A stretch of DNA of 64,000 nt from Candidatus Kaiserbacteria bacterium (GTDB lineage Bacteria; Patescibacteriota; Minisyncoccia; Phycocordibacterales; UBA2100). The first letter of the stretch is position 1. Every line of letters begins with the position of its first letter. Positions 3,041-63,445 of this stretch are shown here, one piece after another. A model generated the notes under the pieces. That model had not been told where the DNA came from and made no database searches. It saw nothing but the letters and a program-made list of their open reading frames with translations. The DNA lies in NCBI GenBank assembly GCA_016214605.1, contig JACROD010000020.1:30158-94157 (forward strand), given 5' to 3'. The position numbers and the translations under genes were made by a program.

Positions 3041-3073
3041 GGCGGAGAGTAGCGACCGCGTATCTGTTTGGGG

Positions 3074-3082
3074 TGGTATAAT
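3074..3082 (+). promoter_or_regulatory. Extended -10 (TGgTATAAT) 6 nt upstream of ATG 3089 (possible leaderless transcript)
   Basis: Sequence tggtataat at 3074-3082, ATG at 3089. Confidence 0.35.
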
Positions 3083-3088
3083 TTTCTC

Positions 3089-7756: not shown

Positions 7757-10054
7757 ATGGATCATATTCAAACATACAAAGTAAAAGGGATGCATTGCGC
7801 TTCGTGCGCGAGCATCATAGAAAAGACGTTCAAGAAAAAAGAAGGCGTACACTCGGTCGAAGTGAACTACGCGACCGAAACTGCGAAGGTCGCGCATGAT
7901 GCAGAAAAAGTCAGTCCAGAGCAGCTATCCAAAATCATCGAACCGCTCGGCTACTCGCTCATCCTGCCGATGGCGAATGATGAAATGAGAATGTTTGCCG
8001 AAGATCATGCCGCTCACCTCGGTCCCAATCAATCAAAGAAAGAGAAATCCACTGAACTTGCCGAGATGAAAACCAAGGTGACGATTGCCATTCCGCTCGC
8101 GATCTTCAGCGGTTTCGTCATGGCGTGGGAAATACTGGCACAATTCAATGCGGTTCCCGCCGTGCCCTATGTGTGGAGTGAGTTTTTTCACCACATCCTG
8201 CCGCTCATGGCGACGTACATGCTCTTCGTCGTCGGCAAGCCGTATCTTCTCGGTATGTATCGGTTCTTTCGATATGGAAGCGCCAACATGGACACACTGA
8301 TTGGCATTGGCACGTCGGCGGCGTATCTCTATAGTGTCATTGTTTCGGCATTTGAGGAGTCATTGCGCCCCTTTCTCAATGTCGATCATACCTACTACGA
8401 CGTGGCGATCGTCGTGATCGCGTTTATCACGCTTGGCAAATATCTGGAAGCGCAATCCAAACTCAAGACGGGTGACGCGATAGAAAAATTACTCAACTTG
8501 CAAGCGAAAACCGCGCTCGTCGTGCGGGATGGGAGGGAAGTCGAAGTGCCGATAGAGAAAATCGTGCATGGCGACATGATCGTCGTGAAGCCCGCAGGCA
8601 AAATACCCGTCGACGGAGTGGTCGTAGACGGTTCATCATACGTGGATGAAGCGATGATCACCGGCGAGCCGATGCCTGTCTCAAAGACAGTCGGAGACAC
8701 AGTGGTCGGAGGCACGCTCAACACTACGGGCGCGTTCACGTTTCGAGCCACAAAAGTCGGCTCGGAGACATTGCTTGCGCATATCATCAAGATGGTCGAG
8801 GAGGCGCAGGGAAGCAAGGCACCGATACAGACATTGGCGGATAAAATCTCAAGTGTTTTCGTGCCTGTTGTGCTTGTGCTCGCGTTCGTGTCTTTGGGGG
8901 CGTGGCTGTTGATCGGCACATCGTACCTCGGCTTCGCACAAGCGCTTTCGTTCGGTCTGGTGTCCTTCGTAGGTATCCTCGTGATCGCGTGTCCGTGTGC
9001 ACTCGGGCTTGCTACGCCCACCGCGATCATCGTCGGCGTGGGCAAGGGTGCGAAGGAAGGAATCCTCATCAAAGACGCGGCGACGCTTGAAAAATTGAAC
9101 AAAGTGAATACAGTGGTGGTCGATAAGACGGGGACCTTGACCAAGGGCAAGCCGGAGTTCATCTCGATACAAAAATTCTCACAGATGAACGATGAAAAAA
9201 TACTGGCAATTCTCGCGGCATTGGAGAAAAAGTCGGAGCATCCGATCGCGCACGCGATTGTCTCTCATGCGGAGGCGAAAGGCGTGTCCTTGCCTGCCGT
9301 GCACTCGTTTGAGGCGATCAAAGGCAAGGGGCTCAGAGGAATAGTTGAGGGTGCGGAGTATTTTGCCGGCAATGCGAAACTCATCACCGATATGCATCTC
9401 ACGATCGATACGGAAGTGCTTGAAAAAGAGACACGGAAGGGCAACACGCCCGTGCTCCTTGCGACCAGAGAACAAGTGCTTGCTCTTGTGATGGTCGCAG
9501 ATCAACTCAAAGAAAACGCAAAAGACGCCATTGATCGGCTCCACAGCCTTGGCATCAAAGTGGTCATGCTCACGGGCGATGATAAGAACACCGCCGCGCA
9601 TATCGCAAGGCGGGTCGGTATCGACGAAGTGATCGCCGAGGTAACACCCGAAGACAAACTCAACACGATTAAAAAATACCAGGCACAGGGACGGATCGTG
9701 GCCATGGCGGGCGACGGTGTCAACGATGCGCCCGCGCTCGCACAAGCCGACGTCGGCATCGCCATGGCGACGGGGACGGATGTAGCGATCGAGACGGCTG
9801 GCATTGCGCTCCTCCACGGCGACATCTCCAAGCTCGTCAAAGCGATCAATCTCTCGAAGATGACGATGCGCGGCATCAAACAGAATCTCTTCTGGGCGTT
9901 TATCTACAACATCGTCGGCATACCGCTCGCGGGAGGATTGTTCTATCCTGTATTCGGCTGGTTGCTCAATCCGGTATTTGCGGGGCTCGCCATGGCGTTT
10001 TCAAGCGTCTCGGTAGTCACCAACTCATTACGCATCAAATCAAAATCACTCTAA
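7757..10054 (+). CDS. copA: Copper-translocating P1B-type ATPase
   Basis: N-terminal [14 protein letters not shown] transmembrane motif, DKTGTLT phosphorylation site, GDGVNDAP. Confidence 0.9.
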
Positions 10055-10100
10055 GTATATGAAGAAGTTGAACCAGAATAAAAAAACAGATGAGGTATTT

Positions 10101-10226
10101 ATGTGTCCCGAATGTGGTCTCTCGTATCGTGAAGCCGAGTGGGCGCAGAAATGTGAAGCATGGTGCAAGCAATATAAGAGTTGCAACCTCGATATTATCC
10201 AGCATGCCATCAACAGTAAAAAATAA
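10101..10226 (+). CDS. 41-aa Cys-rich zinc-ribbon-like peptide (CPECG…CEAWC…SCNLDIIQHA)
   Basis: Not in ORF track (<60 aa); same motif is fused to C-terminus of CDS 55292-56209. Confidence 0.4.
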   Translation: MCPECGLSYREAEWAQKCEAWCKQYKSCNLDIIQHAINSKK

Positions 10227-10228
10227 AT

Positions 10229-11248
10229 ATGAAAACTTACACACTCCATGTCACCGGTATGCACTGTACCGCGTGCCCGATACTCATTGAAAGCGAATTA
10301 GACGATCTGTCCGAGGTGTCCCTAGCCAAAGCATCACTCAAACATCACAGTGTCGAAGTGACCGGAGACTTCGGCGACAAAGAGCCGGAGTATATTGCGC
10401 GAGACTTGAGCGAAGTGTTGAAACCCCACGGGTACTCGCTATCCGTCGAGAGACAGAGGCACGTCGCACAGTGGACCGACTTCAAGTTGGCGCTACCCAT
10501 AGCGCTTGCTTTTGCGGTCGGGTTTCTGCTCTTGCAAAAGGCGGGTCTTGTCAATCTGGTGAACACGGGGACGGTCTCGTATGGTACGGCATTCGCGGTC
10601 GGCATAGTCGCATCGCTCTCTACCTGTATGGCGGTGGTGGGCGGGCTGGTGCTCTCGATGTCTGCGACCTTTGCCAAAGAGGGGGACAAAGTAAAACCTC
10701 AACTCTTATTTCATGCCGGGCGGCTCGTATCCTTCTTCGTGCTTGGCGGCGTGATCGGAGCGATCGGGTCGGCATTTGCGCTCAACACAACAGCGACGTT
10801 TGTATTGAGTATGCTCATCGCGATTGTGATGCTTATACTCGGCATCAATCTGCTCGATGTGTTCCACTGGTCGAAGCGATTGCAGCCCTCAATGCCAAGA
10901 TTCTTGGCGCGGCACGCCTATGGCGCATCCAAACTCAACCACACACTCACACCGCTTCTTGTGGGTATCGCTACGTTCTTCCTGCCGTGCGGATTCACCC
11001 AGTCGATGCAGATATACACACTCTCGACGGGGAGCTTCCTCACGGGTGCCTTCACGATGGGATCATTTGCGCTCGGTACCTTGCCCGTGCTCGGTCTCAT
11101 CAGTTTCAGTTCGTTCAGTATCCACGATCGCGCATATGCCGGCGTCTTCTTCAAGACAGCGGGGCTCATCGTTATCTTGTTCGCCGTGGTCAATCTGATC
11201 AATAGTTTTGTTGTCATTGGCCTTGTCCCGCCATTATTCAGTTTCTAA
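10229..11248 (+). CDS. HMA-domain fused to TauE/SafE-like permease
   Basis: N-terminal GMHCTAC metal-binding motif + multi-TM body. Confidence 0.6.
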   Translation: MKTYTLHVTGMHCTACPILIESELDDLSEVSLAKASLKHHSVEVTGDFGDKEPEYIARDLSEVLKPHGYSLSVERQRHVAQWTDFKLALPIALAFAVGFLLLQKAGLVNLVNTGTVSYGTAFAVGIVASLSTCMAVVGGLVLSMSATFAKEGDKVKPQLLFHAGRLVSFFVLGGVIGAIGSAFALNTTATFVLSMLIAIVMLILGINLLDVFHWSKRLQPSMPRFLARHAYGASKLNHTLTPLLVGIATFFLPCGFTQSMQIYTLSTGSFLTGAFTMGSFALGTLPVLGLISFSSFSIHDRAYAGVFFKTAGLIVILFAVVNLINSFVVIGLVPPLFSF

Positions 11249-29534: not shown

Positions 29535-29539
29535 TAATT

Positions 29540-29929
29540 GGTGGAGGTGCGGGGAATTGAACCCCGGTCCAAAGAAAGATGTCGTGTATGGTCTACGTCG
29601 CGTAGGTCATCTGGTTTTTTTAAGAACAACGTAATCAAGATGAACAGAAATACGGTGTACCGAGCTCTTGTCTTAGATACATGTCGAGCGGCATGTATCA
29701 GTGCCTGATAGGTTTGACGCCTCGCGAATTCTACTCAGGTGATCAAATTCGGAGACGGAGCTTAGGCTACGAGAGCGTAAGCTGGCTGCAAATCTGCCAT
29801 CTGGATAGGTGACAAAACTGCCCGTGCTACTTTGTTCGCACTTAGGTTTTTGTGGCGGTTTGAAAAGTCACCACAGCTTTGCGACGCACATACAGGAATC
29901 GGTTTCCCTGTCGAAGCCAAGTCACCCCC
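29540..29929 (-). ncRNA. ssrA: tmRNA (SsrA)
   Basis: 5' GGGGGUGACUUGGCUUCGACAGGG…, tRNA-like 3' end GGUUCAAUUCCCCGCACCUCCACCA, acceptor G3:U70, tag frame ending …PAYALVA-UAA, smpB adjacent. Confidence 0.85.
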
Positions 29930-39906: not shown

Positions 39907-39979
39907 CCGTCCGTAGCTCAATGGTTAGAGCACGAAGCTTATACCTTCGGGGTTCCTGGTTCGAGTCCAGGCGGACGGA
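39907..39979 (+). tRNA. tRNA-Ile (anticodon UAU)
   Basis: Canonical cloverleaf folded by hand: acceptor ccgtccg/cggacgg, D gctc/gagc, anticodon stem cgaag/cttcg, loop cUUAUAc, T-arm cctgg-ttcgagt-ccagg; CCA not encoded. Confidence 0.75.
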
Positions 39980-40012
39980 CACGATATTGGTCTTGGTTTT
40001 ATTTGGTATGCT

Positions 40013-52399: not shown

Positions 52400-52702
52400 A
52401 TGGAAACAAAGAAATATAAAAAGATCCCGATCGATCCGGACCTTACCAAGCGAGCCAGGCTTTTGGCGCTTGCCGGGGACGAGACGCGGATCCGGATCTT
52501 CTGCTTCATGTTTGAGTACGGCGAAGCGTGCGTGTCGGATATAGCGGAGAGTCTGGATATGAACATCAACACCATTTCGCATCATCTGCGAATGATGAAA
52601 GACAACGGTTTGTTCGTCTGTGAGCGCATGGGCACCAATATCTGCTACAAGCTCGTGCGCGATGAATTCGTAGATAATCTCGAAAAGACGATCTGCGGGT
52701 AA
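52400..52702 (+). CDS. ArsR/SmtB-family metalloregulator
   Basis: wHTH; ~100 aa. Confidence 0.7.
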   Translation: METKKYKKIPIDPDLTKRARLLALAGDETRIRIFCFMFEYGEACVSDIAESLDMNINTISHHLRMMKDNGLFVCERMGTNICYKLVRDEFVDNLEKTICG

Positions 52703-52743
52703 TCTGTCGTTTATTAATTATTATTTATTTTCTACAATTACAT

Positions 52744-53178
52744 ATGGATCAAAAAGTAATAGGCGGAGTAGTGGGAGGTCTTGCGGGCGGCGTCATCTTC
52801 GGCATGCTCATGCAGATGATGGGCATGATGCCGATGATCGCGAGCATGATCGGAAGTACGGCGACCGCCGTCGGATGGATCATACACCTTGTTATCAGCG
52901 CAGTTACGGGGGCGATCTTCGTGCTGGTGTTCTCAAAATTCGTGCGCAATTACGCGGAAGGTTTCGGATACGGCCTGCTTTACGGCATGATCTGGTGGGT
53001 GCTCGGCGCTCTTATTGCGATGCCGGTCATTCTCGGCATGGGAGTGCAGATTCAAAATGCTTTCGACACGATGCGTCTTATGTCCTTGATGGGACATGTG
53101 ATCTTCGGTGTGATCCTCGGTGTCGTGTATGTGTGGTACACGGTGAAAGGTCATGAAAGCATGGAACACACCCACTAA
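52744..53178 (+). CDS. Met-rich small membrane protein
   Basis: MLMQMMGMMPMIASMIG…, 4 TM. Confidence 0.4.
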   Translation: MDQKVIGGVVGGLAGGVIFGMLMQMMGMMPMIASMIGSTATAVGWIIHLVISAVTGAIFVLVFSKFVRNYAEGFGYGLLYGMIWWVLGALIAMPVILGMGVQIQNAFDTMRLMSLMGHVIFGVILGVVYVWYTVKGHESMEHTH

Positions 53179-53198
53179 CTCAATAATTATTCCCCAGT

Positions 53199-53435
53199 AT
53201 GAAAAACGTAACGATATATACCACACCGACCTGTCACTTCTGTCACGGCGCGAAAGAGTTCTTCAAAGAGCATAATGTGACATATACAGAAAAGGATGTT
53301 TCCAGCGACATAGCTGCACGTACGGAAATGGTCGAGAAGTCGGGTCAGATGGGCGTGCCCCTCATCGATATCGAGGGCAAGCTGATCATTGGTTTCGATG
53401 AGAGCGCGTTGCGCAAGGAATTGCAGATCGCGTAG
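53199..53435 (+). CDS. Glutaredoxin-like protein (NrdH/Grx)
   Basis: TPTCHFCH CxxC, 78 aa. Confidence 0.75.
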   Translation: MKNVTIYTTPTCHFCHGAKEFFKEHNVTYTEKDVSSDIAARTEMVEKSGQMGVPLIDIEGKLIIGFDESALRKELQIA

Positions 53436-53478
53436 CACATGGAAAGCTTATTTCTGATCATTATTTTCTTTCCCTCAT

Positions 53479-54003
53479 ATGAAAACCACTTTAATCGTTC
53501 TCGGAGTCGTTGTAGTGATCGCGGCAGTGTTCGCGTGGTCGCGGCCGACGCCGCAAGCGGCGGTGCATGCCGATGCTGCGGCGGATCAAACGGGATCGAC
53601 CCTTCGTCCCGCCCCCGATTTTTCGCTTGAGAAGGTTGGCGGCGGCACGATCACGCTTGCCGACTTCAGGGGCAAGAAGCCGGTCATTCTCGATTTCTGG
53701 ACGACCTGGTGCCCCAATTGCCGTCGCGACATGCCGCGCCAAAATGAATGGTACAAGAAATACAAAGATTCGGTCGAAGTGATCGGCATCGACATGCAAG
53801 AGGATTCGAGCGTCGTCAAAGCGTTTGTCGAGAAGCTTAGTATTGTGTACCCGATAGCGCTCGATCCGCGGGCGCAGGCGACGAGGAGCTACAATGTCAT
53901 CTACACGAATTATCATGTGCTCGTCGACAAACAAGGCACTGTCGTAAAGACGATCCCGGGCGACATTAGCGAGCAGGATTTCTTGTCGCTCATCAATTTG
54001 TAA
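53479..54003 (+). CDS. TlpA/ResA-like membrane-anchored thiol:disulfide oxidoreductase
   Basis: WCPNC. Confidence 0.75.
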   Translation: MKTTLIVLGVVVVIAAVFAWSRPTPQAAVHADAAADQTGSTLRPAPDFSLEKVGGGTITLADFRGKKPVILDFWTTWCPNCRRDMPRQNEWYKKYKDSVEVIGIDMQEDSSVVKAFVEKLSIVYPIALDPRAQATRSYNVIYTNYHVLVDKQGTVVKTIPGDISEQDFLSLINL

Positions 54004-54005
54004 CC

Positions 54006-55022
54006 ATGACCATCCTGCGTCCTGTCATCGTGATCGTTCTTCTGCTCGGCATAGGAGCCGCCGTGCTCTATGGTCTGTGGCATGTGATGAATAGTTCCGG
54101 CGCCGCGCGTACGGCCTCTTCGTCTACCCCTGGAGGCCGTAGGCTTGGCGCCGGAGGTGCGCTTACGACGAATACCGCCAAGCACTCCATTCCGCTCGAG
54201 GCTGTGCTCGACGGCGGCCCGGGCAAAGATGGCATCCCCACACTCGTCGATCCGACCTTCACATCCATTGAAGACGTCGATTCCGACATCACCGATACAG
54301 TCGATGGTATTCTCGTAACGGTCGGCGATGTCGCGAAATTCTATCCGTACAACATCATGGTATGGCATGAGATCGTAAATGATACGGTAGGCGGCAAGTC
54401 GCTCATCGTCACGTTTTGTCCGCTGTGCGGCTCGGCGATCGTGTATGAGGCGGAGGTCAATGGCAAGACAGAGCTATTCGGCGTCTCCGGTAAGCTCTAC
54501 AATTCCAATCTCTTGATGTACGACAAGACGACGGAGAGCTTGTGGTCGCAGGTGCAAGGCGAGGCCGTCGTCGGTGATCTGACTGGCGTCTCGCTCACGC
54601 TCTATCCGTCGCAAGTCATTTCGTTCAAGACGCTTCGCGAGAAATATCCGCAGGCGCACGTGTTGAGTACCGATACCGGGTACCGGCGCGACTACTCATT
54701 TTACCCATACGGCAACTACGATACTTCAAGCGACTTGTATTTCCCGATCGCCATCACCGACACGCGCCTGCCGACCAAAGAGATCATGCACGTAGTGAAT
54801 TACAACAATCACTCGATTGCCTTCAAGGTCAAAGACTTGAAGCCGGGAGTTGTGGCAAACGTGGATGTGTCAGGCAAGAAATTGATCGGCAAACTTGAGG
54901 GGGGAGAAATAATCATTACTGCGGAGAGTGGCGAGAAACTCCCTGGTTACACGACGATGTGGTTCGCCTGGGCAGTGCATCATCAGCAAGACGGTATTGT
55001 ATGGACCGTCGCGCCGGAATAG
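54006..55022 (+). CDS. DUF3179-family protein
   Basis: TFCPLCGS motif, N-terminal TM. Confidence 0.65.
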   Translation: MTILRPVIVIVLLLGIGAAVLYGLWHVMNSSGAARTASSSTPGGRRLGAGGALTTNTAKHSIPLEAVLDGGPGKDGIPTLVDPTFTSIEDVDSDITDTVDGILVTVGDVAKFYPYNIMVWHEIVNDTVGGKSLIVTFCPLCGSAIVYEAEVNGKTELFGVSGKLYNSNLLMYDKTTESLWSQVQGEAVVGDLTGVSLTLYPSQVISFKTLREKYPQAHVLSTDTGYRRDYSFYPYGNYDTSSDLYFPIAITDTRLPTKEIMHVVNYNNHSIAFKVKDLKPGVVANVDVSGKKLIGKLEGGEIIITAESGEKLPGYTTMWFAWAVHHQQDGIVWTVAPE

Positions 55023-55291
55023 CAAGATACGATGGAGGTATTATTCGTTAACTCAAGATCTACATTTTATGAACAAAAAAGTCATTATCGCCGGTCTCGT
55101 AGCAAGCATGGTGGCACCTGCGACTGCGGGTGCGGAAAATAGGACAAATGGACCGCCGCCGAGGTGGTACCGCTTCGGTGGCGGTCCATAACAAGTAAGG
55201 AATAGGTGAATAGTATGGGTATGTATGGTCACCGTAAACTATATTATCAAGATTATATTCAACGCTTGAATCCGCGATACACATTTTATTT

Positions 55292-56209
55292 ATGGAACAA
55301 TTCATTCTTACCGTAAAAGCGCAACAACAGAAATATGCGAACCCTCTCGTACTTATCCACGGCTCATGGGGGTCATCCGCCATGTGGATGGGTTACACAC
55401 AATTCTTATCAATGAAAGGTTTTGATGTATATGCGCCTGATCTGCGCGGACACGGCAAGAGCGAGGGCGCACTCGCGGGAGCGACGATGTCTGATTACGT
55501 CGCCGATGTCGTGCGTGCCGTAGCCGATCATGGCCTCAAGGATCCGGTCGTTGTCGGGCACTCCATGGGCGGACTCATTGCGCTCATGTATGCGGCAGAG
55601 TATGGCGCCAAAGCGGTTATCGCTATTGATCCGAGTCCTTCCAAGGAGGTGCAGGGCGAGGGAGTGCACAAAGACTATCTCGCGATCTATTCCCCGATGG
55701 ATGCGGGTATGCCCGCTGATCCGATGGAGGTCATGAAAGCGCTTCCGGACATACCGCAAGAGATGCTCATGAAAATGAAAGACATGCTCGGCATGGAATC
55801 CGGTGTGGCGCGAAGCGAGCGCAAGCTTGGCATCTCGATACCGAAAGAAAAACTCCCGATGCCGATACTCTTTGTCGGGGGCGAGCTTGGCGAGTCGGTG
55901 CCATTCGGTATCGGCATCAAGACCGCTCGCGCCATGGCCGACTTTTATGGGAAAGAAGTGCTGGAGATCAAGGGTGCCACGCACCCCGGCATTCTCATCG
56001 GCGAGCATGCGATGGAGGCTGTACAAGGGATTGAGCAGTGGATCGCGAAAACGTCAGAAGGATCGAATAGAGTATTCACCTGTCCCGTATGCGGCATGCA
56101 GTACAAGGACGAAGAGATCGCAAAGCGATGCGAGGCGTGGTGTACGGAGCACCATAGCTGTAATCTCGACATCATCTCGCACGCCGTCAAACATTCCTCA
56201 ATTGCTTAG
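55292..56209 (+). CDS. Alpha/beta hydrolase fused to C-terminal Cys-rich CPxCG…CEAWC…SCNLDII module
   Basis: GHSMGG nucleophile elbow; C-terminal 40 aa homologous to peptide 10101-10226. Confidence 0.6.
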   Translation: MEQFILTVKAQQQKYANPLVLIHGSWGSSAMWMGYTQFLSMKGFDVYAPDLRGHGKSEGALAGATMSDYVADVVRAVADHGLKDPVVVGHSMGGLIALMYAAEYGAKAVIAIDPSPSKEVQGEGVHKDYLAIYSPMDAGMPADPMEVMKALPDIPQEMLMKMKDMLGMESGVARSERKLGISIPKEKLPMPILFVGGELGESVPFGIGIKTARAMADFYGKEVLEIKGATHPGILIGEHAMEAVQGIEQWIAKTSEGSNRVFTCPVCGMQYKDEEIAKRCEAWCTEHHSCNLDIISHAVKHSSIA

Positions 56210-56217
56210 GGTGAGGA

Positions 56218-56862
56218 GTGTATACTACAAGTATGAAAGGCAATAACACACAAAAAGGTTTCGCGTCTTCCGCACTTATCGGTGTGATCGTTTTCGTGGT
56301 AGTGGTGGGGACGGTCGCGTATCTCACCGTGTCCAAGCAGTCACAAAATACCATGGAGCCGACGGCAGACCATGTCGTCCCCATGGAGGGTGATCAGAGT
56401 ATGACGGGAGAAGTGATGAAAGGGGATGAGATGAAGGCAGGAGATGATGCCATGACAAAAAAAGACGGCGGCGTGATGATGCAAAAATATACGGGCACAG
56501 TCTTGGCCGGTACGTCGGCTCCGCTCTTGGATTTCAACAAAGCCGATTATGATGCTGCCGTACGATCAGGCAAGCTCGTGGTGCTGTATTTCTACGCCAA
56601 CTGGTGTCCGGTCTGCAAAGCGGAGTTTCCGAAGGCGCAGGCTGCGTTCAATGCGCTTACCACGGACGAGGTGATCGGATTTCGCGTCAACTACAAGGAC
56701 AATGAGACGGATAAGGATGAAGAAGCGCTGGCGCGTCAGTTTGGCGTCCCGTATCAACACACCAAGGTTTTCCTCAAAGACGGCAAACAAGTGCTCAAGG
56801 CGCCCGATCAGTGGGACGCGGCGCGCTATACTGTAGAGATACAGAAAGCGCTTACTCAATAA
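56218..56862 (+). CDS. Membrane-anchored thioredoxin-like protein
   Basis: WCPVC. Confidence 0.65.
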   Translation: MYTTSMKGNNTQKGFASSALIGVIVFVVVVGTVAYLTVSKQSQNTMEPTADHVVPMEGDQSMTGEVMKGDEMKAGDDAMTKKDGGVMMQKYTGTVLAGTSAPLLDFNKADYDAAVRSGKLVVLYFYANWCPVCKAEFPKAQAAFNALTTDEVIGFRVNYKDNETDKDEEALARQFGVPYQHTKVFLKDGKQVLKAPDQWDAARYTVEIQKALTQ

Positions 56863-56890
56863 TTATTAACTGCACTAAATTGAATTAATT

Positions 56891-57682
56891 ATGGAAAACG
56901 ATACTCAGCTTCCCATGCCACAGCCGCCCGCGCGTGATTGGAGTATCTTTTTTGCGAGTGTGTTCTTTGTGCTCGGATTTTCGTTCGTGTTCTCGCTCTT
57001 GGGTGTGCTTTTGCAGACCGTGCTCAGTAATTCTTCATATGCCGTACAGGAATGGCTCGGCCGCATCGGCGGCATCATTATCATCCTCTTCGGTCTCTTC
57101 GTGCTCGGTCTCTTCACGCCAGCATTCCTCAAGCGTGATCACAAAGTCGCGGTGAAACGTCGCTTCAAGTCAAAATATCTTACATCCTTCGTATTCGGTG
57201 CCGCGTTCGCGGTCGGGTGGACCCCATGTGTCTCGGCGGCGCTCGGCGCGATCCTCGTACTTGCGGCGACCAATGCGACGAGCGCGTTTCTCCTGCTCTT
57301 CGCATATACGCTCGGTATTGGCGTACCGTTTCTCGTCGTTGGGCTCTTTACCAATCAGGCGCAAGGGTTCATCGATAGGGCAGGACCGTGGCTGCGCTAT
57401 GTCGAATATGTATTTGGCGTGCTTCTTATCATAATCGGCGTATTCATTTTCGTCGGGGAGCTGAGTAGGATCGCGAATTTTGCCTTCCTTACTGATGTGC
57501 TTACATCGCTCAATATTGGCACCGAAGCTGGCGCCGACATCGCAGGATTGTCCGTCACCAACTTCGTCGTTGCACTGTTTGCCGGCCTCGCATCCTTCCT
57601 CTCGCCGTGTGTGCTGCCTATCATCCCCGGATTCCTTTCATATCTCGCGCAGGTGAGCATCGACCCCAAGATCCAACAATAA
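56891..57682 (+). CDS. ccdA: CcdA/DsbD-family transmembrane thiol-disulfide transporter
   Basis: Two conserved Cys (WTPCV, SPCVLP), 6+ TM. Confidence 0.7.
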   Translation: MENDTQLPMPQPPARDWSIFFASVFFVLGFSFVFSLLGVLLQTVLSNSSYAVQEWLGRIGGIIIILFGLFVLGLFTPAFLKRDHKVAVKRRFKSKYLTSFVFGAAFAVGWTPCVSAALGAILVLAATNATSAFLLLFAYTLGIGVPFLVVGLFTNQAQGFIDRAGPWLRYVEYVFGVLLIIIGVFIFVGELSRIANFAFLTDVLTSLNIGTEAGADIAGLSVTNFVVALFAGLASFLSPCVLPIIPGFLSYLAQVSIDPKIQQ

Positions 57683-57688
57683 ATCTCT

Positions 57689-58912
57689 ATGAACCATGCC
57701 GTTAGAAACGCCCTTCTGATCGTCGTAAGCTCGATCATTGTCGCTTCGATCGTCTTCCTCGAAAGTCAAAAAGTCCATTCATCCGGCCCGTCGTCGGATT
57801 CCAATGCCGCAATCGACCTCGATGCGCTCTTCCAGGCGACGCCGACTCCTTCAGATACTACGTCAGCGATCGCGGGAGCCCCACAGGAGAGCACTCCGAC
57901 CAAGCTGCCGCGGACCAGCGACTTTGAAGCGCTTCGTGCCAAATATTCGCCTGCGGTCGAGCTCGTATCTCCGGATGCGTACATCAACACAGGCCTCAAT
58001 CCCGATGGTTCTGCTAAGCCGATCACTATCGCCTCGCTCATCGGCAAGAAGGTGATCATCGTCGATTTCTGGACGTACAGCTGCATCAACTGTCAGCGCA
58101 ACATCCCGTACATTGAGGCCTGGTACGAGAAGTACAAAGACGCGGGGCTCGTAGTCATCGGCGTGCATTCTCCGGAGTTCGAATTCGAAAAGAATCTTGG
58201 GAACGTACAAGATGCGGTGAAAAAATTCGGCATCACATATCCGGTCATTCTCGACAGCGAGATGCGCACGTGGAATGCGTATTCCAATCTCTATTGGCCG
58301 GCGCACTACATCATCGATATTAACGGTCTTATTGTGGACAAGCATTTTGGCGAAGGTGGGTACGCGCAGACAGAAAGCCAGATCCAGAAGCTCTTGAAGG
58401 AGCGGCAGCAGGTGCTTGGCAGTACGGTGTCGGTGCCTGCGGGCACGGTGAATATCGCGCAGGTCGTGCAGGCCAATAGTCCGGAGACGTATTTCGGCGC
58501 TTCGCGCAACGAATACCTTGGCAATGGCGCACCATTCCTTGGTGGTATGCAGACATACGCGCGCCCCGACGACGCGTCGATTGATCGCAACAATCTCTAC
58601 CTCTCCGGCGCATGGAATCTCGACGCGGAGTACGCGGAGAATCGCTCGTCCGATGCGCGCATCATCTACAAATACACCGCGCGCAATGTCTACTTTGTCG
58701 CGAGCTCGGATGAGGGCTCCTCGATCACTGTCTTGCGCGACGGCGTGCCGGTCGATGGTTCGCACGGGGAAGACGTGTCTCCCGACGGCACCGTCATGAT
58801 CAAAAATGCGCGCCTCTACAAGCTCATATCGGAGACGCAGATGGGCACGCACACCCTCGAGATCATCATCAAAAACCCCGGCCTCAAGGCCTACACGTTT
58901 ACGTTTGGATAG
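57689..58912 (+). CDS. Thioredoxin-like (CINC) domain fused to DipZ-like C-terminal domain
   Basis: FWTYSCINCQ; together with ccdA resembles a split DipZ. Confidence 0.6.
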   Translation: MNHAVRNALLIVVSSIIVASIVFLESQKVHSSGPSSDSNAAIDLDALFQATPTPSDTTSAIAGAPQESTPTKLPRTSDFEALRAKYSPAVELVSPDAYINTGLNPDGSAKPITIASLIGKKVIIVDFWTYSCINCQRNIPYIEAWYEKYKDAGLVVIGVHSPEFEFEKNLGNVQDAVKKFGITYPVILDSEMRTWNAYSNLYWPAHYIIDINGLIVDKHFGEGGYAQTESQIQKLLKERQQVLGSTVSVPAGTVNIAQVVQANSPETYFGASRNEYLGNGAPFLGGMQTYARPDDASIDRNNLYLSGAWNLDAEYAENRSSDARIIYKYTARNVYFVASSDEGSSITVLRDGVPVDGSHGEDVSPDGTVMIKNARLYKLISETQMGTHTLEIIIKNPGLKAYTFTFG

Positions 58913-58919
58913 TGTTTCC

Positions 58920-60203
58920 TTATGAATGCAGCTGGCGTGCGAGGGATTTTTCGACGAGCAGGCGGGGCCAGCCGTAGGCGAGGCGATTGAGAGTCGTCAC
59001 CTTTGCTTTGGTCGATGAGTCTTTGGATATTTCTTCTGGCGGCAGCGTGATGCCCGAAAAGGCCTCGCTCGTTTTGCCGTCGATCATGAGCTTGATGTAG
59101 AAATTGAAACGCGGCAGGCCGATGAAGTCGCGCTCCGTGATCGGCGCGAACTCTCGCGCGAGGATCCGCGCATCTTCAATCCCGACCTCGAAGGCGAGGA
59201 GCGTGCCGACGTTGCCGAACAAGCTGTCTCGGATCGTATCCGGCAGCTGCGAAAGGTATTGATTCGCGAGATGCATACCGAGGCCGTATTTGCGCGATTC
59301 GCTCAGGAGGCTCGCAAACGTATCAGTGATGAAGTTTTGGAATTCGTCCACATACAGATAGAATGGCGTCCGCGCGGATGCACCTCGGTCGGCACGCTTC
59401 ATGACGGCGGCCTGCAGGCGCGAGATCAGGATGAGTCCGAGCATATGTGCATTCATCTCGCCGATCTTCCCCTTGGACAGGTTTACGAGCAGGATGCTCT
59501 TTTTGTCCATCAGCTCGTCAAATTCGAAGCTGTTGATGCGGTGGCCCATGATGTTGCGCATGAGCGGGCTGTTGATGAAGGGGCCGAATTTGGACATGAA
59601 GTAATTGAGCATCTCGCTTTTGTGGAAGCCGGAAGTTTTCGCCATTTGTTTGGTCCAGAAGTCGATCACGAGGGGATCGGTGAGGTGCGACCGCTTCGTC
59701 TTTTCGAATGCGGGATCGACGAAGAGCTTGGGGATCTCGAGTATGCTGCCGCCCTCGGGCCCCGCCATGACGGTGAGCGCCGCGTTGCGCAGCCAGTGTT
59801 CAAACTGTGGTCCGATAAGGCCGGTCTTTTCCGGGTCGAAGAGCTTGTAGAAGATCTGGATGCATTCGTTGACGAGGAAGTCCTTTTCGAATTCGTCGTG
59901 TGCTTCCAGGAGATTGAGTCCGAAGGGAAAATCCTTGTCGCTCGGATCGAAGAGGATCACGTCTTGCAGGCGGTTTTGGGGGATGTGCTCGAGCAGCCAG
60001 TCGATCGAATCTCCGTGCGGGTCGATAAAGCAGACGCCGTGGCCGCTTTGGATGTCTTGTAGGCACATGTTTTGGAAGATGGTCGATTTGCCGACGCCGG
60101 TCTTGCCGACCATGTACATGTGCCGCAAGCGGTCCTTTTCGGCGTACTCGATCAGCCGCCTGCGTCCGCGAAATTCATTGATGCCGATAGATACGTTTGC
60201 CAT
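58920..60203 (-). CDS. TrwB/VirD4/TraG-family ATPase (short paralog)
   Basis: VGKTGVGKS Walker A, YLYVDEFQNF, ANQYLSQL; paralog of 3089-5857. Confidence 0.75.
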   Translation of the reverse strand: MANVSIGINEFRGRRRLIEYAEKDRLRHMYMVGKTGVGKSTIFQNMCLQDIQSGHGVCFIDPHGDSIDWLLEHIPQNRLQDVILFDPSDKDFPFGLNLLEAHDEFEKDFLVNECIQIFYKLFDPEKTGLIGPQFEHWLRNAALTVMAGPEGGSILEIPKLFVDPAFEKTKRSHLTDPLVIDFWTKQMAKTSGFHKSEMLNYFMSKFGPFINSPLMRNIMGHRINSFEFDELMDKKSILLVNLSKGKIGEMNAHMLGLILISRLQAAVMKRADRGASARTPFYLYVDEFQNFITDTFASLLSESRKYGLGMHLANQYLSQLPDTIRDSLFGNVGTLLAFEVGIEDARILAREFAPITERDFIGLPRFNFYIKLMIDGKTSEAFSGITLPPEEISKDSSTKAKVTTLNRLAYGWPRLLVEKSLARQLHS

Positions 60204-60207
60204 ATTT

Positions 60208-60525
60208 TTAAATGTGAGTATCGAGGGGCTTTTGTACGAAGTATTCGGACTTGAGGGTCTTATTCAGGCGCTTTTTCATGGCGGCGATCTTGGCCTCCGA
60301 TTCGACGACCGAGAGCAAGAACTCCCGCTCATACTCTATCTTGGTACGCAGTGCGTCGAAGAGTGTGCGGCTGATGTCCGCGTGGATCGATGCGAGCATT
60401 TCGCTGCGCTCGGTATACACGCTCTGGGCCTGCGGCAGTGTGAGGCCTGCTGGGGGAGCATCTTGAGGAGATTCGTCGCTGCGGAATCGTTCGGTATGGT
60501 GCATGTGTTCGTGAGGATTGTTCAT
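60208..60525 (-). CDS. Hypothetical 105-aa protein, operon partner
   Basis: ORF track; 4-nt overlap with upstream Clp-like gene. Confidence 0.4.
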   Translation of the reverse strand: MNNPHEHMHHTERFRSDESPQDAPPAGLTLPQAQSVYTERSEMLASIHADISRTLFDALRTKIEYEREFLLSVVESEAKIAAMKKRLNKTLKSEYFVQKPLDTHI

Positions 60526-62201
60526 AGGTATGAGTGCTCGGTATGTGCCTCCAAGAGCGAATCCATGAGTAATGTCTCGCAGGTTTCTTCGACGAATCGC
60601 TTCACGGGCCGGGCGCCGAAGCGGGGATCGGCAATGTGCCGTATTCGCTCTTCGAGTGTCTCTGGTTCGATGGCGAAACGCACACGATGTTTGGAGAGCC
60701 GTTTCTCGATCTTTTGGATCTCGAGCTGTGCGACCTGCACTAGGCTCGATACGGTGAGCGGCTGAAAGACCAAAATACTGTCGAAGCGATTGATGAATTC
60801 GAGTCGGAAGGTCTTGGCGAGTATCGGTAGGACCGTCTCTGCCACAAATGCATCATTGTCGATGCGCGTATGGCGCGCATGCGCCGCCAGTATCTCCTGC
60901 ACAGCTGCGTTGGAGGTCGCCATGAAGATCGCATTGCGGGCGTCGACCGTCTCGCTTTGTCCCGAGGTGAGGCGCCCGTCGTCGAGTACCTGGAGAAACA
61001 CGTCGAATACTTTGGGATGCGCTTTTTCGATCTCGTCGAGCAGGATGAGGGAGTGGGGCTCCTTGCGCAGGGCATTGGTGAGCGCGCCGCCTTCTTCGTA
61101 GCCGACGTATCCCGGCGGGGCGCCGATCAGGCGCTGGACCGAGTGTTCTTGCTGGAATTCGGACATGTCGATGCGTGTGAAGCTCTCGGCGCGCCCAAAC
61201 ATGATCTCGGCCACGCACTTGGCGGTCTCTGTCTTGCCGACTCCCGAGGGCCCGAGCAAGAGGAACGAGCCGAGCGGACGATCGGGATTCCTGAGCCCGA
61301 GCCTGGCCCGCTGCAGGGTCGCTGCAATCTTTGCCGTGGCGCCTTTTTGGTCGACGATGCGTTTGTCGAGCGTGTCCGCGAGGTCTTTGATCCCCTGGAG
61401 CTCGCCCTGCTTCATGCGAGCGCTCGGGACGCCGGTCTTTGCTTCGATCAGATGCATGACCGATTCGGGCGTGAGAATCTTGTGATCTTGGGCGGCGCAC
61501 GACGAGATGCTTTCGTCGAGCAGGTGGATCGCCGATCGCGGCATCTGCCCGAGGACGGGAAAGCGCTGCGCGAGTGCGACGATCTCTTGCAGGGCATCGT
61601 CGGGCACGATGACGTGGTGGTGAGCATTGAGGAGGGGGATCTTTTTCGACAGGATGCGCCGGTATTCGGACGCGGTCTGTTCTTTGAGGGTGATGGTCTC
61701 GAAGAGATGTATGAACGCGGGATACTCACGCTCGAGCCACGCGTATTCGTGAGTCTCCAGGGCGAGCACGACGTGCACATCCGGGCGCGCGAGCAGATGC
61801 TTGTACAGGCGATGGATGTGCTGGGCGAACGCCGTGTTTTTGGAAAGTTCTCGCCCGAAATCATCGACGAACAAGACGCATGCAGGCAGGTGCTCGAATG
61901 CCTCGGCGTACCGCTCTTCGAGGCTCGCGTCGTTGACGGCTTCAAACACATGCTCGGTGTCCAATTGCAAGAGTGCGTATGCATCGTAGCGGGATCGTCC
62001 GATCATGTGCCGTACCCAGCCGTAGGCCAAGGCTGTTTTGCCGATGCCGCTTGGCCCTACGATGAGCGCGTTGTTGTTGATCCGGCGGCCGAGCAGGCGA
62101 TTGATCCGGCTGATCTCGTCGCGGCGACCGACGAGGGCGGGCAGGCGGCCCTTGTGCGCTTCTTCTCGCAGGTCATAGTAGGTGATCTTTTTGTTGCTCA
62201 T
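60522..62201 (-). CDS. ClpA/ClpB-family two-AAA ATPase lacking N- and M-domains (NBD1 Walker B degenerate)
   Basis: NBD1 GPSGIGKTA; NBD2 LLGPSGVGKTE…LLDEIEKAHP…DDGRLT…; 559 aa. Confidence 0.8.
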   Translation of the reverse strand: MSNKKITYYDLREEAHKGRLPALVGRRDEISRINRLLGRRINNNALIVGPSGIGKTALAYGWVRHMIGRSRYDAYALLQLDTEHVFEAVNDASLEERYAEAFEHLPACVLFVDDFGRELSKNTAFAQHIHRLYKHLLARPDVHVVLALETHEYAWLEREYPAFIHLFETITLKEQTASEYRRILSKKIPLLNAHHHVIVPDDALQEIVALAQRFPVLGQMPRSAIHLLDESISSCAAQDHKILTPESVMHLIEAKTGVPSARMKQGELQGIKDLADTLDKRIVDQKGATAKIAATLQRARLGLRNPDRPLGSFLLLGPSGVGKTETAKCVAEIMFGRAESFTRIDMSEFQQEHSVQRLIGAPPGYVGYEEGGALTNALRKEPHSLILLDEIEKAHPKVFDVFLQVLDDGRLTSGQSETVDARNAIFMATSNAAVQEILAAHARHTRIDNDAFVAETVLPILAKTFRLEFINRFDSILVFQPLTVSSLVQVAQLEIQKIEKRLSKHRVRFAIEPETLEERIRHIADPRFGARPVKRFVEETCETLLMDSLLEAHTEHSYL

Positions 62202-62216
62202 AAGTGATCTTTAGTA

Positions 62217-63104
62217 TTAGGCGGCCATCTCCAGGATAATCCCGTCTTTGCTGACACGGCTGCGCAAAGGGCTGCGGGGACGGATGATCTCGGTGTTGTC
62301 GTTTTGCGGCGGCGCGGCGACGGATCGCTGTGTGTTCGGGAGACTATAGCGGGCTGGTAGCTCGGGGCTTCGGGCGAGACGCGTCATAGGTACGCCGATC
62401 GCGTGCAGAATACTCTCTGCTTGTGCGACGGGCTCTTGCTCGCTGTTTTTTTCTCCTTCTTGTTTTTCGTTTTCGGTCACGGCCTCGTGTGCTATCGCCT
62501 CGAAAGCGAGGACTTCATTGATCGTCTCTTGTGCTTCACTTGGGATAGTGTCTTCAGGCTGCTCTGTGCGCACGATCGCGGATGTCTCGGCGACCCCTGT
62601 CTCTTCTTGCACCATGCGTTCATCTTCGGCACGCATGATCTCGTGTTTGTGGATCTCGTAGGTGACCAATCCGTTCTCGCCGAGAATGAGCTGCGTCACA
62701 TACAATATCTCTCCGTCGGCGGTCTGCTCGCGATAATCCGGCAAGAAGAAGACTCTGTCGCCGCCCTCGCGCCATTGGGCGAGCATCTCTTGGTGCAGGG
62801 TAGTGTCTTCATTCATCCACACATTGCCCTCGGGATCGCGGATATTTTGTCCGTCAAACCAGTATCCGCTGTCGCCGCTGTACGCATGCTCCCAGTCGTC
62901 CTCCTCGCCGCCTTTTTGTTCGAGGACGGCTTGTTCGCCCGGCTCGGCTGGCTCTTGGCGTTCTGCTTCTTCACTATCCTCGGATTTTTCGTACTCGGCC
63001 GTCTCGCGGGATTCGCGCTCCGAGGCAGAAGCGTACTCGACGTCCTCATTAAGTCCTTCCACGTATTCTTCTTCGTCGATAAAATCTTGGATCTCGGTCT
63101 GCAT
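62217..63104 (-). CDS. Highly acidic hypothetical protein, first gene of the operon
   Basis: ORF track (ATG at 63104; TTG 63131 rejected). Confidence 0.45.
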   Translation of the reverse strand: MQTEIQDFIDEEEYVEGLNEDVEYASASERESRETAEYEKSEDSEEAERQEPAEPGEQAVLEQKGGEEDDWEHAYSGDSGYWFDGQNIRDPEGNVWMNEDTTLHQEMLAQWREGGDRVFFLPDYREQTADGEILYVTQLILGENGLVTYEIHKHEIMRAEDERMVQEETGVAETSAIVRTEQPEDTIPSEAQETINEVLAFEAIAHEAVTENEKQEGEKNSEQEPVAQAESILHAIGVPMTRLARSPELPARYSLPNTQRSVAAPPQNDNTEIIRPRSPLRSRVSKDGIILEMAA

Positions 63105-63134
63105 AGTGATTTTTCTTGGGATAAAAAACAAAAA

Positions 63135-63150
63135 CTCCGCCCAAGCGGAG
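63135..63150 (-). terminator. Hairpin ctccgc-ccaa-gcggag followed by U-run on minus strand
   Basis: Read directly. Confidence 0.5.
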
Positions 63151-63159
63151 ATCCTTAAA

Positions 63160-63445
63160 AATGCCTTTCAGCATCGAATCCTGCTCGGGAAAAACCGGAT
63201 TGATGAAGATCGGACTCGTACCCGTGAGATGGCGAAGCCCATATCTCCGGGTCATTACCGTTGCGGCACAGTAGGGGAATCTCACCCCACTTCCTATCCG
63301 TACTTTTTCAGCACGGACCCGACTCTACTTCAGTCGGCTATCAACCGTACGTTTGATTATATGCTCGGACTTTTTCGGTGCAAACATTTTGCCCGACATG
63401 AATGTGAATAGCGAGTGTGTCAATAGAAAAAACAGACGACCGAGA
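63160..63445 (-). ncRNA. Structured ncRNA candidate, possibly minimal RNase P RNA (rnpB-like)
   Basis: No ORF; bounded by two terminators; P4-like pseudoknot AAAAG(U)CCG / CCGGUUUUU with bulged U, adjacent P2-like UCGGG/CCCGA, segments resembling AGUCCGGGC and ACGGUAA…CCCGGAG. Confidence 0.3.

Follow-up and report, generated by a model that had tools for sequence, protein, structure and literature searches.

A 64-kb stretch of the chromosome of a Candidatus Kaiserbacteria bacterium (Paceibacteria, candidate phyla radiation (CPR)), referred to here in its entirety as the window, carries on its minus strand an operon of four genes, A to D, which is headed by a cobalamin riboswitch, self-contained and conserved as a unit. 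Gene A (62217-63104) starts at an ATG and encodes an acidic protein of 295 aa, gene B (60522-62201) a minimal Hsp100/ClpB-like double-AAA+ unfoldase of 559 aa, gene C (60208-60525) a fast-evolving orphan of 105 aa, and gene D (58920-60203) a soluble, TrwB/VirD4-like P-loop ATPase of 427 aa that belongs to the type IV coupling protein (T4CP) family. All parts come from known families; their combination and their regulation are new. A full-text literature search returned no paper linking a Clp/Hsp100 gene to a T4CP homologue, and no report of cobalamin riboswitches upstream of such genes in CPR bacteria; Wang et al. 2023 (PMC10633639) mention neither VirD4 nor Clp. An earlier, preliminary description of this DNA had claimed that the unfoldase and the coupling-protein homologue form an undescribed module, and no published description of one emerged from the same search. 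The operon points to an undescribed machine that is used when B12 is scarce.

A conserved four-gene operon and its cobalamin riboswitch

A six-frame list of open reading frames (ORFs) contained all four minus-strand genes at the coordinates given above, and their tight packing, as well as the acidity of the first product (isoelectric point 4.2, 24% Asp+Glu), agreed with the preliminary description. Measured on the sequence, the junctions are 15 nt between A and B, a 4-nt ATGA overlap in which the start of C overlaps the stop of B, and 4 nt between C and D, which leaves no space for internal signals in the operon. A convergent gene ends 7 nt past the stop of D. The ORF of gene A can be extended from a TTG codon to 63131, but its start was set at the ATG because homologues begin there. 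None of the four products contains a hydrophobic segment of transmembrane strength (maximal 19-residue Kyte-Doolittle value, 1.36). The surrounding DNA is chromosomal in character, encoding tmRNA, tRNA, FtsH, RecG and nucleotide kinases.

More than 7,990 homologues of D were retrieved, of which the best 120 are 69-100% identical and come nearly all from Parcubacteria/Paceibacteria-type metagenome-assembled genomes (MAGs). Conservation of the neighbourhood in relatives, which the preliminary description had singled out for checking, was evident: the order A-B-C-D is kept in 13/13 readable loci that hold D in this short form (L001, L003, L005, L006, L007, L085-L088, L104 (partial), L165, L167 and L168). 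These relatives are MAG or metagenome contigs, some with evidently mislabelled record titles (e.g. 'Gammaproteobacteria' bins), and their ORFs were called heuristically with genetic code 11. Identity to the window proteins is 62-76% for D, 43-67% for B, 18-53% for C and 22-41% for A; the number of D homologues and the identity of D and B across relatives indicate that these are real genes and not chance ORFs. The flanks of the cassette vary and are all housekeeping (Mur ligase, RuvA, S20, ribonucleotide reductase (RNR), ATP synthase, ABC transporter). A Clp-like gene lies near D in 13/13 short-form loci, against none of ~150 loci that encode a longer relative of D, described below, each checked over 6-7 kb (Fisher p=1.8e-19), demonstrating that the linkage of B and D is far above chance. 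No virB4, other type IV secretion system (T4SS) or relaxase gene was found in the 13 cassette loci. The operon is not a conjugation remnant.

The 5' leader of A contains a predicted adenosylcobalamin (AdoCbl) riboswitch aptamer at 63166-63311 (minus strand), detected as a full-length match to Rfam RF01482 with core motifs matched (33.2 bits, E=1.3e-4); two further models of the cobalamin clan (Rfam CL00101) match at the same place. A terminator-like hairpin, CTCCGCTTGGGCGGAG, followed by a U-run, TTTTTGTTTT, occupies 63125-63150 (minus strand), ~20 nt before the start codon of A, and is the likely expression platform. Upstream of the aptamer, a consensus scan placed a promoter-like site, TTTGCA-17-TATAAT, at 63356-63384 (minus strand, 10/12 matches); such sites are not more frequent in the region than in shuffles, so that this one is weak on its own. 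Between it and gene A, the 250-nt leader has an unusually stable predicted fold (z=-3.5).

Because the window score lies under the Rfam cut-off, orthologous leaders were checked. Five of them score above gathering (L001, 58.2 bits; L167, 65; L003, 40.4; L005, 40.6; L088, 40.1), those of L165, L006 and L168 yield a cobalamin-clan match at E <=0.005, and a covariance model that we built from nine leaders finds two loci on which it had not been trained, L087 (1.3e-8) and L086 (4e-7), the E-values of this model being rough. The riboswitch is therefore present in 11/11 cassette loci with upstream DNA, the window included, always on the same strand and 30-250 nt upstream of A, with a hairpin and U-run between riboswitch and gene in 7/11 leaders. 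Across the nine leaders the core GGGAAGTnnGGTGAGAATCCnnCACTGTnCCGCAACGGTAA is conserved and the hairpin carries compensatory changes, with each of the four Watson-Crick pairs occurring at two stem positions. Cobalamin riboswitches are established as OFF switches, and by analogy the operon is most likely read when AdoCbl is low. In L167, the gene directly upstream of the riboswitch encodes an RNR that matches a class II insertion domain. The preliminary description, which had considered for these genes a generic secretion or DNA-handling module, was right in its domain calls and in the packing of the genes and had overlooked the riboswitch. Since this element heads the operon, we take the operon to be a member of the B12 regulon rather than a generic secretion or DNA-handling module.

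A minimal unfoldase, a coupling-protein paralogue and two orphan proteins

B matches the Pfam families AAA_2 (2.6e-58), ClpB_D2-small (3.8e-12) and AAA_lid_9, and the TIGRFAM models for ClpB, ClpV and ClpA match it strongly, far under their equivalog cut-offs (TIGR03346, 415 against 1232). Its residues 5-242 align to residues 163-408 of Escherichia coli ClpB and its residues 244-551 to 532-835, with no counterpart to ClpB 1-160 or ~410-530, indicating that the N-domain and the M-domain are absent and that the first nucleotide-binding domain (NBD1) is joined directly to the second (NBD2). NBD2 aligns to E. coli ClpB with 277 bits over ~300 residues and is conserved about as in housekeeping ClpB; 13 aligned B orthologues show no variation in its Walker A and B motifs, its GYVG pore loop, its sensor 1 or its GAR sensor 2. 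In NBD1, the Walker B motif is LFVDDF in place of the FIDELH of ClpB, and pore loop 1 has lost its tyrosine. The alignment of orthologues shows that the Walker B glutamate of NBD1 is absent from 13/13 orthologues (hhhhD[D/N/T/S]FG), that the pore-loop-1 region is variable and holds no aromatic residue, and that GK[TS] is retained. These observations extend the preliminary call, borne out by both Pfam and the ClpB alignment, that B is a ClpA/B-family ATPase with a degenerate NBD1 Walker B and neither an N- nor an M-domain. Judging from these motifs, the first ring can probably still bind ATP without hydrolysing it, and B is predicted to be a minimal ClpB-type hexameric threading motor powered by its second ring. 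No IGF, IGL or VGF tripeptide for ClpP docking follows sensor 1 (ATSNAAVQEILAAHARHTRIDNDAFVAETV) in any of the 13 orthologues, at the position that the ClpP loop takes in ClpA and ClpC sequences. Without this loop and without the M-domain, B should have no protease partner and no coupling to DnaK.

D passes the Pfam cut-offs of TrwB_AAD_bind (22.9 bits, cut-off 20.5) and TraG-D_C (23.4, cut-off 22) narrowly and stays under that of DUF87/HerA (20.7, cut-off 23.2); the T4CP models of NCBIfam score it far under their cut-offs (e.g. SXT_TraD, 45.8 against 366). A profile of the D family searched against the PDB ranks TrwB (1.3e-6) before DotL (3.9e-5) and HerA (1e-3). An AlphaFold2 model of D (predicted local distance difference test (pLDDT) 80), built from a shallow alignment of 43 sequences that are 69-84% identical, finds DotL and Cagbeta as best Foldseek matches (TM-score 0.62), followed by HerA (~0.5). 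FtsK is absent from both the profile-versus-PDB and the Foldseek match lists. An identity as HerA or FtsK, which would have undone the TrwB/VirD4-family call of the preliminary description, was thus rejected, since T4CPs outrank HerA by profile as well as by fold. The Walker A (GKTGVGKS) and Walker B (YVDEF) motifs are invariant and both align to TrwB. The model places a helical, all-alpha insert at residues ~104-233, between the two Walker motifs and, more closely, between strands 82-85 and 237-240. Residues that are invariant specifically in the short forms are concentrated in this all-alpha domain, which is partner-binding in known T4CPs (28/135 positions, compared with 8/75 and 19/155 for the halves of the nucleotide-binding domain).

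The preliminary description had treated D as a coupling-protein homologue and asked whether it has membrane segments. Its maximal 19-residue Kyte-Doolittle value is 1.24 and Walker A begins as early as residue 33, indicating that there is no N-terminal transmembrane anchor; D is therefore not a canonical coupling protein. We conclude that D is a soluble paralogue of the T4CP family which has lost the anchor and the N-terminal domain of its longer relatives, and that it represents one branch within a radiation of T4CP-like ATPases specific to Patescibacteria. D also matches positions 406-805 of the 824-position phage family phrog_5156 (PHROG, 4.5e-48), to which no function is assigned. Its tblastn matches in large Bacillus phages are 21-25% identical only, and proteins resembling the longer relatives of D occur in phages too, such as gp156 of Bacillus phage G (JN638751.1 91966-93111).

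A has no match in Pfam, NCBIfam, PADLOC or PHROG. Its AlphaFold2 model, which like that of D rests on a shallow alignment, contains an alpha/beta domain at residues ~50-160 with a pLDDT of ~90; elsewhere the value is <50 and the chain is predicted to be disordered. A thus comprises a small folded domain, a linker that is acidic and disordered, and a conserved tail at the C-terminus, SKDGIILEMAA. Orthologues range from 295 to 961 aa and retain the folded domain and the tail, which reads [LF][ND]G[IV]x[ML]x[RK]xA-COOH in one clade and PEFELA[AV]-COOH in another. The tag peptide of the tmRNA encoded in the window (29539-29929, minus strand) ends in ...PAYALVA, and the ends of A orthologues, AA, VA, AV or TA, are similar. 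A hairpin-like motif, FDGxN[IM]xxPxGxx[WY], is found at residues ~75-100 of A (window 62800-62880) and in a conserved, uncharacterised protein encoded just downstream of the longer D relatives (e.g. L015 8534-9088 and L094 7314-7814); this sharing is weak (hhalign E 1e-3, probability 20%), with 10/26 weak hmmsearch matches being neighbours of these relatives.

In every cassette locus, C separates B from D; its product is helical, 79-120 aa long, and contains three invariant residues (K62, E66, F96) and, close to the C-terminus, a YF that is almost invariant. Its profile has no match in Pfam or the PDB, and a homologue search returned only 5 close matches.

Long-form relatives of D in B12-related gene strings

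The ATPase module of D also constitutes the C-terminal part of proteins of 780-960 aa, 42-55% identical to it, which were found throughout Patescibacteria by an exhaustive search and two collection scans. These long forms consist of a single N-terminal transmembrane helix and an uncharacterised domain of ~350 aa ahead of the module. The window encodes one of them (3068-5857, plus strand, 929 aa) between map and ndk, 53 kb from the cassette, with the ATPase module at residues ~510-900 (TraG-D_C, 4.9e-8). Replacement of the long form by the short form in Paceibacteria was rejected, as the window has both. In a neighbour-joining tree, drawn without bootstrap support values, the short forms make up a single clade, whose sister is a clade of long forms found as tandem pairs, and the window long form groups with other Parcubacteria-type long forms. 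The tandem genes (~820 aa and ~950 aa) occur in L008, L009 and L090-L096, sometimes with a ~170-aa gene between them, and the upstream member of the pair is the closest long-form relative of short-form D. The long forms are the 'orphan T4CP homologues' of Quinonero-Coronel et al., who counted 5,713 of them in 2,918 Patescibacteria genomes, with 148 near virB4, and stated that their exaptation 'cannot be ruled out' (PMC12102498).

Cobalamin riboswitches are found on this branch of the family as well. Our covariance model matches at least 14 Microgenomates-type long-form loci, and AdoCbl-II riboswitches above Rfam gathering are present in L144, L137, L062, L030 and L060, where they stand at the head of gene strings on the same strand whose last member is the long-form gene. 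The string of L060 comprises the riboswitch, a 669-aa protein termed X, a small protein and the long form, separated by 13- and 23-nt spacers; other riboswitch-led strings hold DUF6580 or DUF4430, the latter being the C-terminal domain of transcobalamin-type B12 binders (PMC4350170). The strings usually adjoin genes for a PduO-type cobalamin adenosyltransferase and RNR. An order shared by Microgenomates-type loci (L024, L030, L037, L040, L049, L060, L061, L062, L129, L133, L137, L144 and L147) runs from RNR and PduO through the AdoCbl-II riboswitch, DUF4430, DUF6580 or X, and a small protein to the long form, and in these loci the string sits ~1.5-4 kb upstream of the long-form gene. It looks like an island for B12 utilisation and uptake that includes the ATPase. 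Taken together, these results show that patescibacterial T4CP-like ATPases recur within gene strings that are both B12-regulated and B12-related.

The C-terminus of several X proteins is a basic stretch followed by G[VI]IF..S-COOH, resembling the tail of A. A comparison of C with the small protein upstream of the long forms for homology was negative; derivation of A, B or C from the N-terminal domain of the long forms was rejected too (hhalign probability <=0.4%). Just downstream of long-form genes, a XerC/D-type tyrosine recombinase (34 loci), DivIC and DnaX recur (examples: L024 9168-10031 (minus strand), L024 10178-10558 and L010 5190-6791), which could hint at a role related to the chromosome or to division or could be mere lineage synteny.

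Some further features were noted. Judged from translations only, the genes adjoining the cassette at 52400-58912 (plus strand) form a thiol-redox run, which comprises a regulator of the ArsR kind, an ORF resembling glutaredoxin, three ORFs of thioredoxin fold (motifs WCPNC, WCPVC and YSCINC) and a CcdA/DsbD-like protein with multiple membrane passes. A copper-type P1B ATPase (HMA and E1-E2 ATPase domains) followed by an unusual HMA-DsbD_2 fusion protein is encoded at 7757-11248 (plus strand). The tRNA-Ile at 39907-39980 (plus strand) has the anticodon UAU, an uncommon bacterial route to read AUA, which is usually read by a lysidine-modified CAU. Outside the window, a group I intron scoring above gathering (66.5 bits) lies near a tRNA gene on the Levyibacteriota chromosome of L062 (14013-14213, plus strand).

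A proposed threading machine, its alternatives and its place among known systems

We favour, with a probability of roughly 0.35, a module for threading and hand-over in which A is the client, recognised by its conserved C-terminal tail. In this model, plentiful AdoCbl would bind the leader RNA and transcription would stop at the hairpin before A, and when B12 is scarce the operon would be read through. B would then engage its client, most likely A by the C-terminal tail, and draw it through the second ring, the active one; once unfolded, the chain would pass to the six-fold ring of D, with C bridging the two or regulating them. D would in turn deliver the chain to a membrane machinery, either a patescibacterial T4SS or the long-form paralogue at 3068-5857, and the purpose of the whole would be the acquisition or trafficking of cobalamin under B12 limitation. 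B, C and D would thus act together, with A engaged as their client. Five lines of reasoning favour this model. A Clp motor that has no protease must pass its substrate on to a receiver. D would be a six-fold ring, from a family that receives substrates by C-terminal signals. The residues invariant only in the short forms cluster in the domain with which T4CPs bind partners. T4SS substrates must be unfolded, and a dedicated unfoldase is not known there (PMC12857230). Finally, VirB4 is present in 2,417/3,035 Patescibacteria assemblies, or 80% (PMC12102498).

A more far-reaching version, which we regard as possible and less probable than the general model, holds that Patescibacteria have turned the T4CP family into a motor of a so far unknown route of B12 acquisition: in Paceibacteria, the soluble D ring, stacked with its dedicated Clp unfoldase, would export A via the essential T4SS, A being a client induced by B12 starvation and sent out of the cell, or into a host, to capture cobalamin. 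If true, type IV-like export would have its first dedicated unfoldase, and the B12 regulon would gain a member of a categorically new kind.

Several observations weigh against threading and hand-over to D. The riboswitch of the window scores under the Rfam gathering score of 50 bits, neither Rfam nor our own model finds one at L007, the most divergent cassette, and its OFF logic is drawn from general knowledge of cobalamin riboswitches. The operon encodes no membrane protein, and, in line with the preliminary description, which had seen no T4SS genes nearby, neither VirB4 nor any other T4SS part or relaxase is found among the large ORFs of the window, where the long-form paralogue at 3068-5857 is the sole related gene. 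The folded domain of A matches no PDB fold under E 0.03 in the fold search and so shows no B12-binding likeness; its identity as a DUF4430-type B12 binder was rejected (hhalign probability 0). Homology between A and the X proteins is not detectable either, the two being alike only in operon position and style of tail. The tail itself could just as well serve as an ssrA-like tag for Clp or as a signal for a T4CP.

Nothing need leave the cell if B, under B12 starvation, unfolds cobalamin-holding proteins and thereby frees their tightly bound cofactor for the essential RNR. Here A would be a high-affinity store, or spent B12 enzymes would be the clients, and D and C would act as loader or regulator. 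B12 leaves high-affinity binders when the binder is destroyed, and such intracellular salvage would agree with four soluble products, with riboswitch control of the operon, with an unfoldase without the protease-partner loop and with the RNR gene that adjoins the cassette in L167. However, it assigns no role to a T4CP-type ring, the domain of A is without a B12-binding signature and the operon is without a cobalamin-processing enzyme, and we consider it unlikely.

To the same degree unlikely is a deoxynucleotide bypass, in which low B12 would turn on D as a DNA translocase and foreign DNA, imported or processed, would serve as a source of deoxynucleoside triphosphates, with B stripping proteins and A acting as an acidic, DNA-mimicking regulator; RNR is the only obvious B12-dependent step in these genomes. 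T4CPs and their FtsK and HerA relatives pump DNA, and B12 riboswitches control B12-independent bypasses such as nrd genes. The fold matches of D include HerA, and the long-form paralogues neighbour genes for a XerC/D-type recombinase, DnaX and RNR. Patescibacteria have also been argued to need a nucleotide source other than ComEC (PMC12102498). Nevertheless, the operon holds no nuclease, DNA-binding domain or channel, the operon partners of the long forms resemble B12 binders or transporters (DUF4430, DUF6580) and not DNA genes, and the Clp partner argues for a protein substrate.

The operon could also be a plain accessory coupling module for the resident T4SS that unfolds effectors or relaxase-like substrates, its B12 control being incidental. 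The T4CP-like nature of D, the frequency of VirB4 in Patescibacteria (PMC12102498) and the need of T4SS substrates for unfolding (PMC12857230) fit this explanation. Yet a riboswitch in 11/11 leaders, and again in the long-form branch, argues that the control is not incidental, D is without a membrane anchor, none of the 13 loci is linked to virB4, and of the patescibacterial T4CP homologues only the 148/5,713 cited above lie near that gene. This explanation therefore appears improbable. Still more so is control of A only, with B, C and D being a general proteostasis or chaperone set that happens to lie downstream: B is indeed the only Clp-type gene seen in the 64 kb, with an NBD2 about as conserved as that of housekeeping ClpB, but the 15-nt spacer between A and B is too short for a terminator or a promoter, all 13 loci keep the gene order, no B occurs without a D, and B lacks the M-domain required for DnaK-coupled disaggregation. 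An anti-phage defence or mobile-element module was rejected as highly improbable, for the PADLOC matches (D to mad8, 5.5e-13; B to PDC-M37B and DolB via its AAA domain) and the match of D to phrog_5156 are weak or generic, the phage sequences are only 21-25% identical, no integrase or nuclease partners are present, and the cassette is core-genome in character, with D 62-76% identical across divergent relatives and housekeeping flanks that vary by lineage.

Threading and hand-over under B12 control would have several implications. CPR bacteria are not known to make B12, and they appear to depend on it, since RNR and adenosyltransferase genes adjoin these loci; the operon is likely part of the answer to how they obtain it from hosts. 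It is conserved across at least the sampled Paceibacteria-type lineages. The literature search turned up no B12 regulon that includes AAA+ or T4CP ATPases, and none is known; here these ATPases join the repertoire of riboswitch-controlled genes. In B, an Hsp100 protein is reduced to a minimal architecture whose first ring is dead, and its fixed genetic link to a T4CP paralogue would make this Clp motor the first candidate for a T4SS unfoldase (PMC12857230). Furthermore, B12 regulation offers a handle on the role of the thousands of orphan T4CP homologues of Patescibacteria (PMC12102498).

Compared with known Hsp100/Clp proteins (ClpB, ClpA, ClpC, ClpV), B likewise has two AAA+ modules, an intact NBD2 pore loop and a D2-small domain. 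It differs in being without the N-domain, without the M-domain that defines ClpB and without the ClpP loop that defines ClpA/C/E/X, and further by the loss of the catalytic glutamate and the pore-loop tyrosine of NBD1 in 13/13 orthologues. Human CLPB/Skd3 is an NBD2-only relative, and ClpI of Actinomycetota retains its N- and M-domains and hence differs from B (PMC10149685). In common with T4CPs (TrwB of R388, VirD4, DotL with DotM/N/IcmSW, Cagbeta with CagZ), the nucleotide-binding domain of D carries an all-alpha insert; D is near TrwB in the spacing between Walker A and Walker B and has the RK.G...Q..QL motif region. As for Cagbeta and CagZ, a small helical protein, here C, is encoded directly upstream of the ATPase. 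Unlike them, D has no N-terminal membrane domain and no linkage to a T4SS or relaxase, its identity to solved structures is very low (E 1e-6, by profile only), and it is combined with an Hsp100 partner and B12 riboswitch control, neither of which is known for any T4CP.

In concept, B and D resemble EccA and EccC of type VII secretion, where a cytosolic AAA+ protein is likewise paired with an ATPase of the FtsK/HerA superfamily that reads C-terminal tails. EccA is of the CbxX type, however, EccC is multi-domain and membrane-anchored and only a weak fold match to D (TM-score 0.27), and no other type VII genes are present with the cassette. The long-form T4CP-like ATPases differ from D by their N-terminal transmembrane helix and ~350-aa domain, which is unrelated to A, B or C, and by having no Clp gene nearby; they share its ATPase module, the short forms branch beside one of their clades, and, in Microgenomates, they too lie in strings led by an AdoCbl riboswitch. 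Finally, A to D show no recognisable transporter, binder or isozyme such as those encoded by operons for B12 uptake or bypass (btuB/btuFCD, ECF-CbrT, metE, nrd), but the leader is of the same kind, an aptamer with a terminator-like hairpin and presumably OFF logic, and loci related to the cassette hold genes for a DUF4430 B12 binder and an adenosyltransferase.

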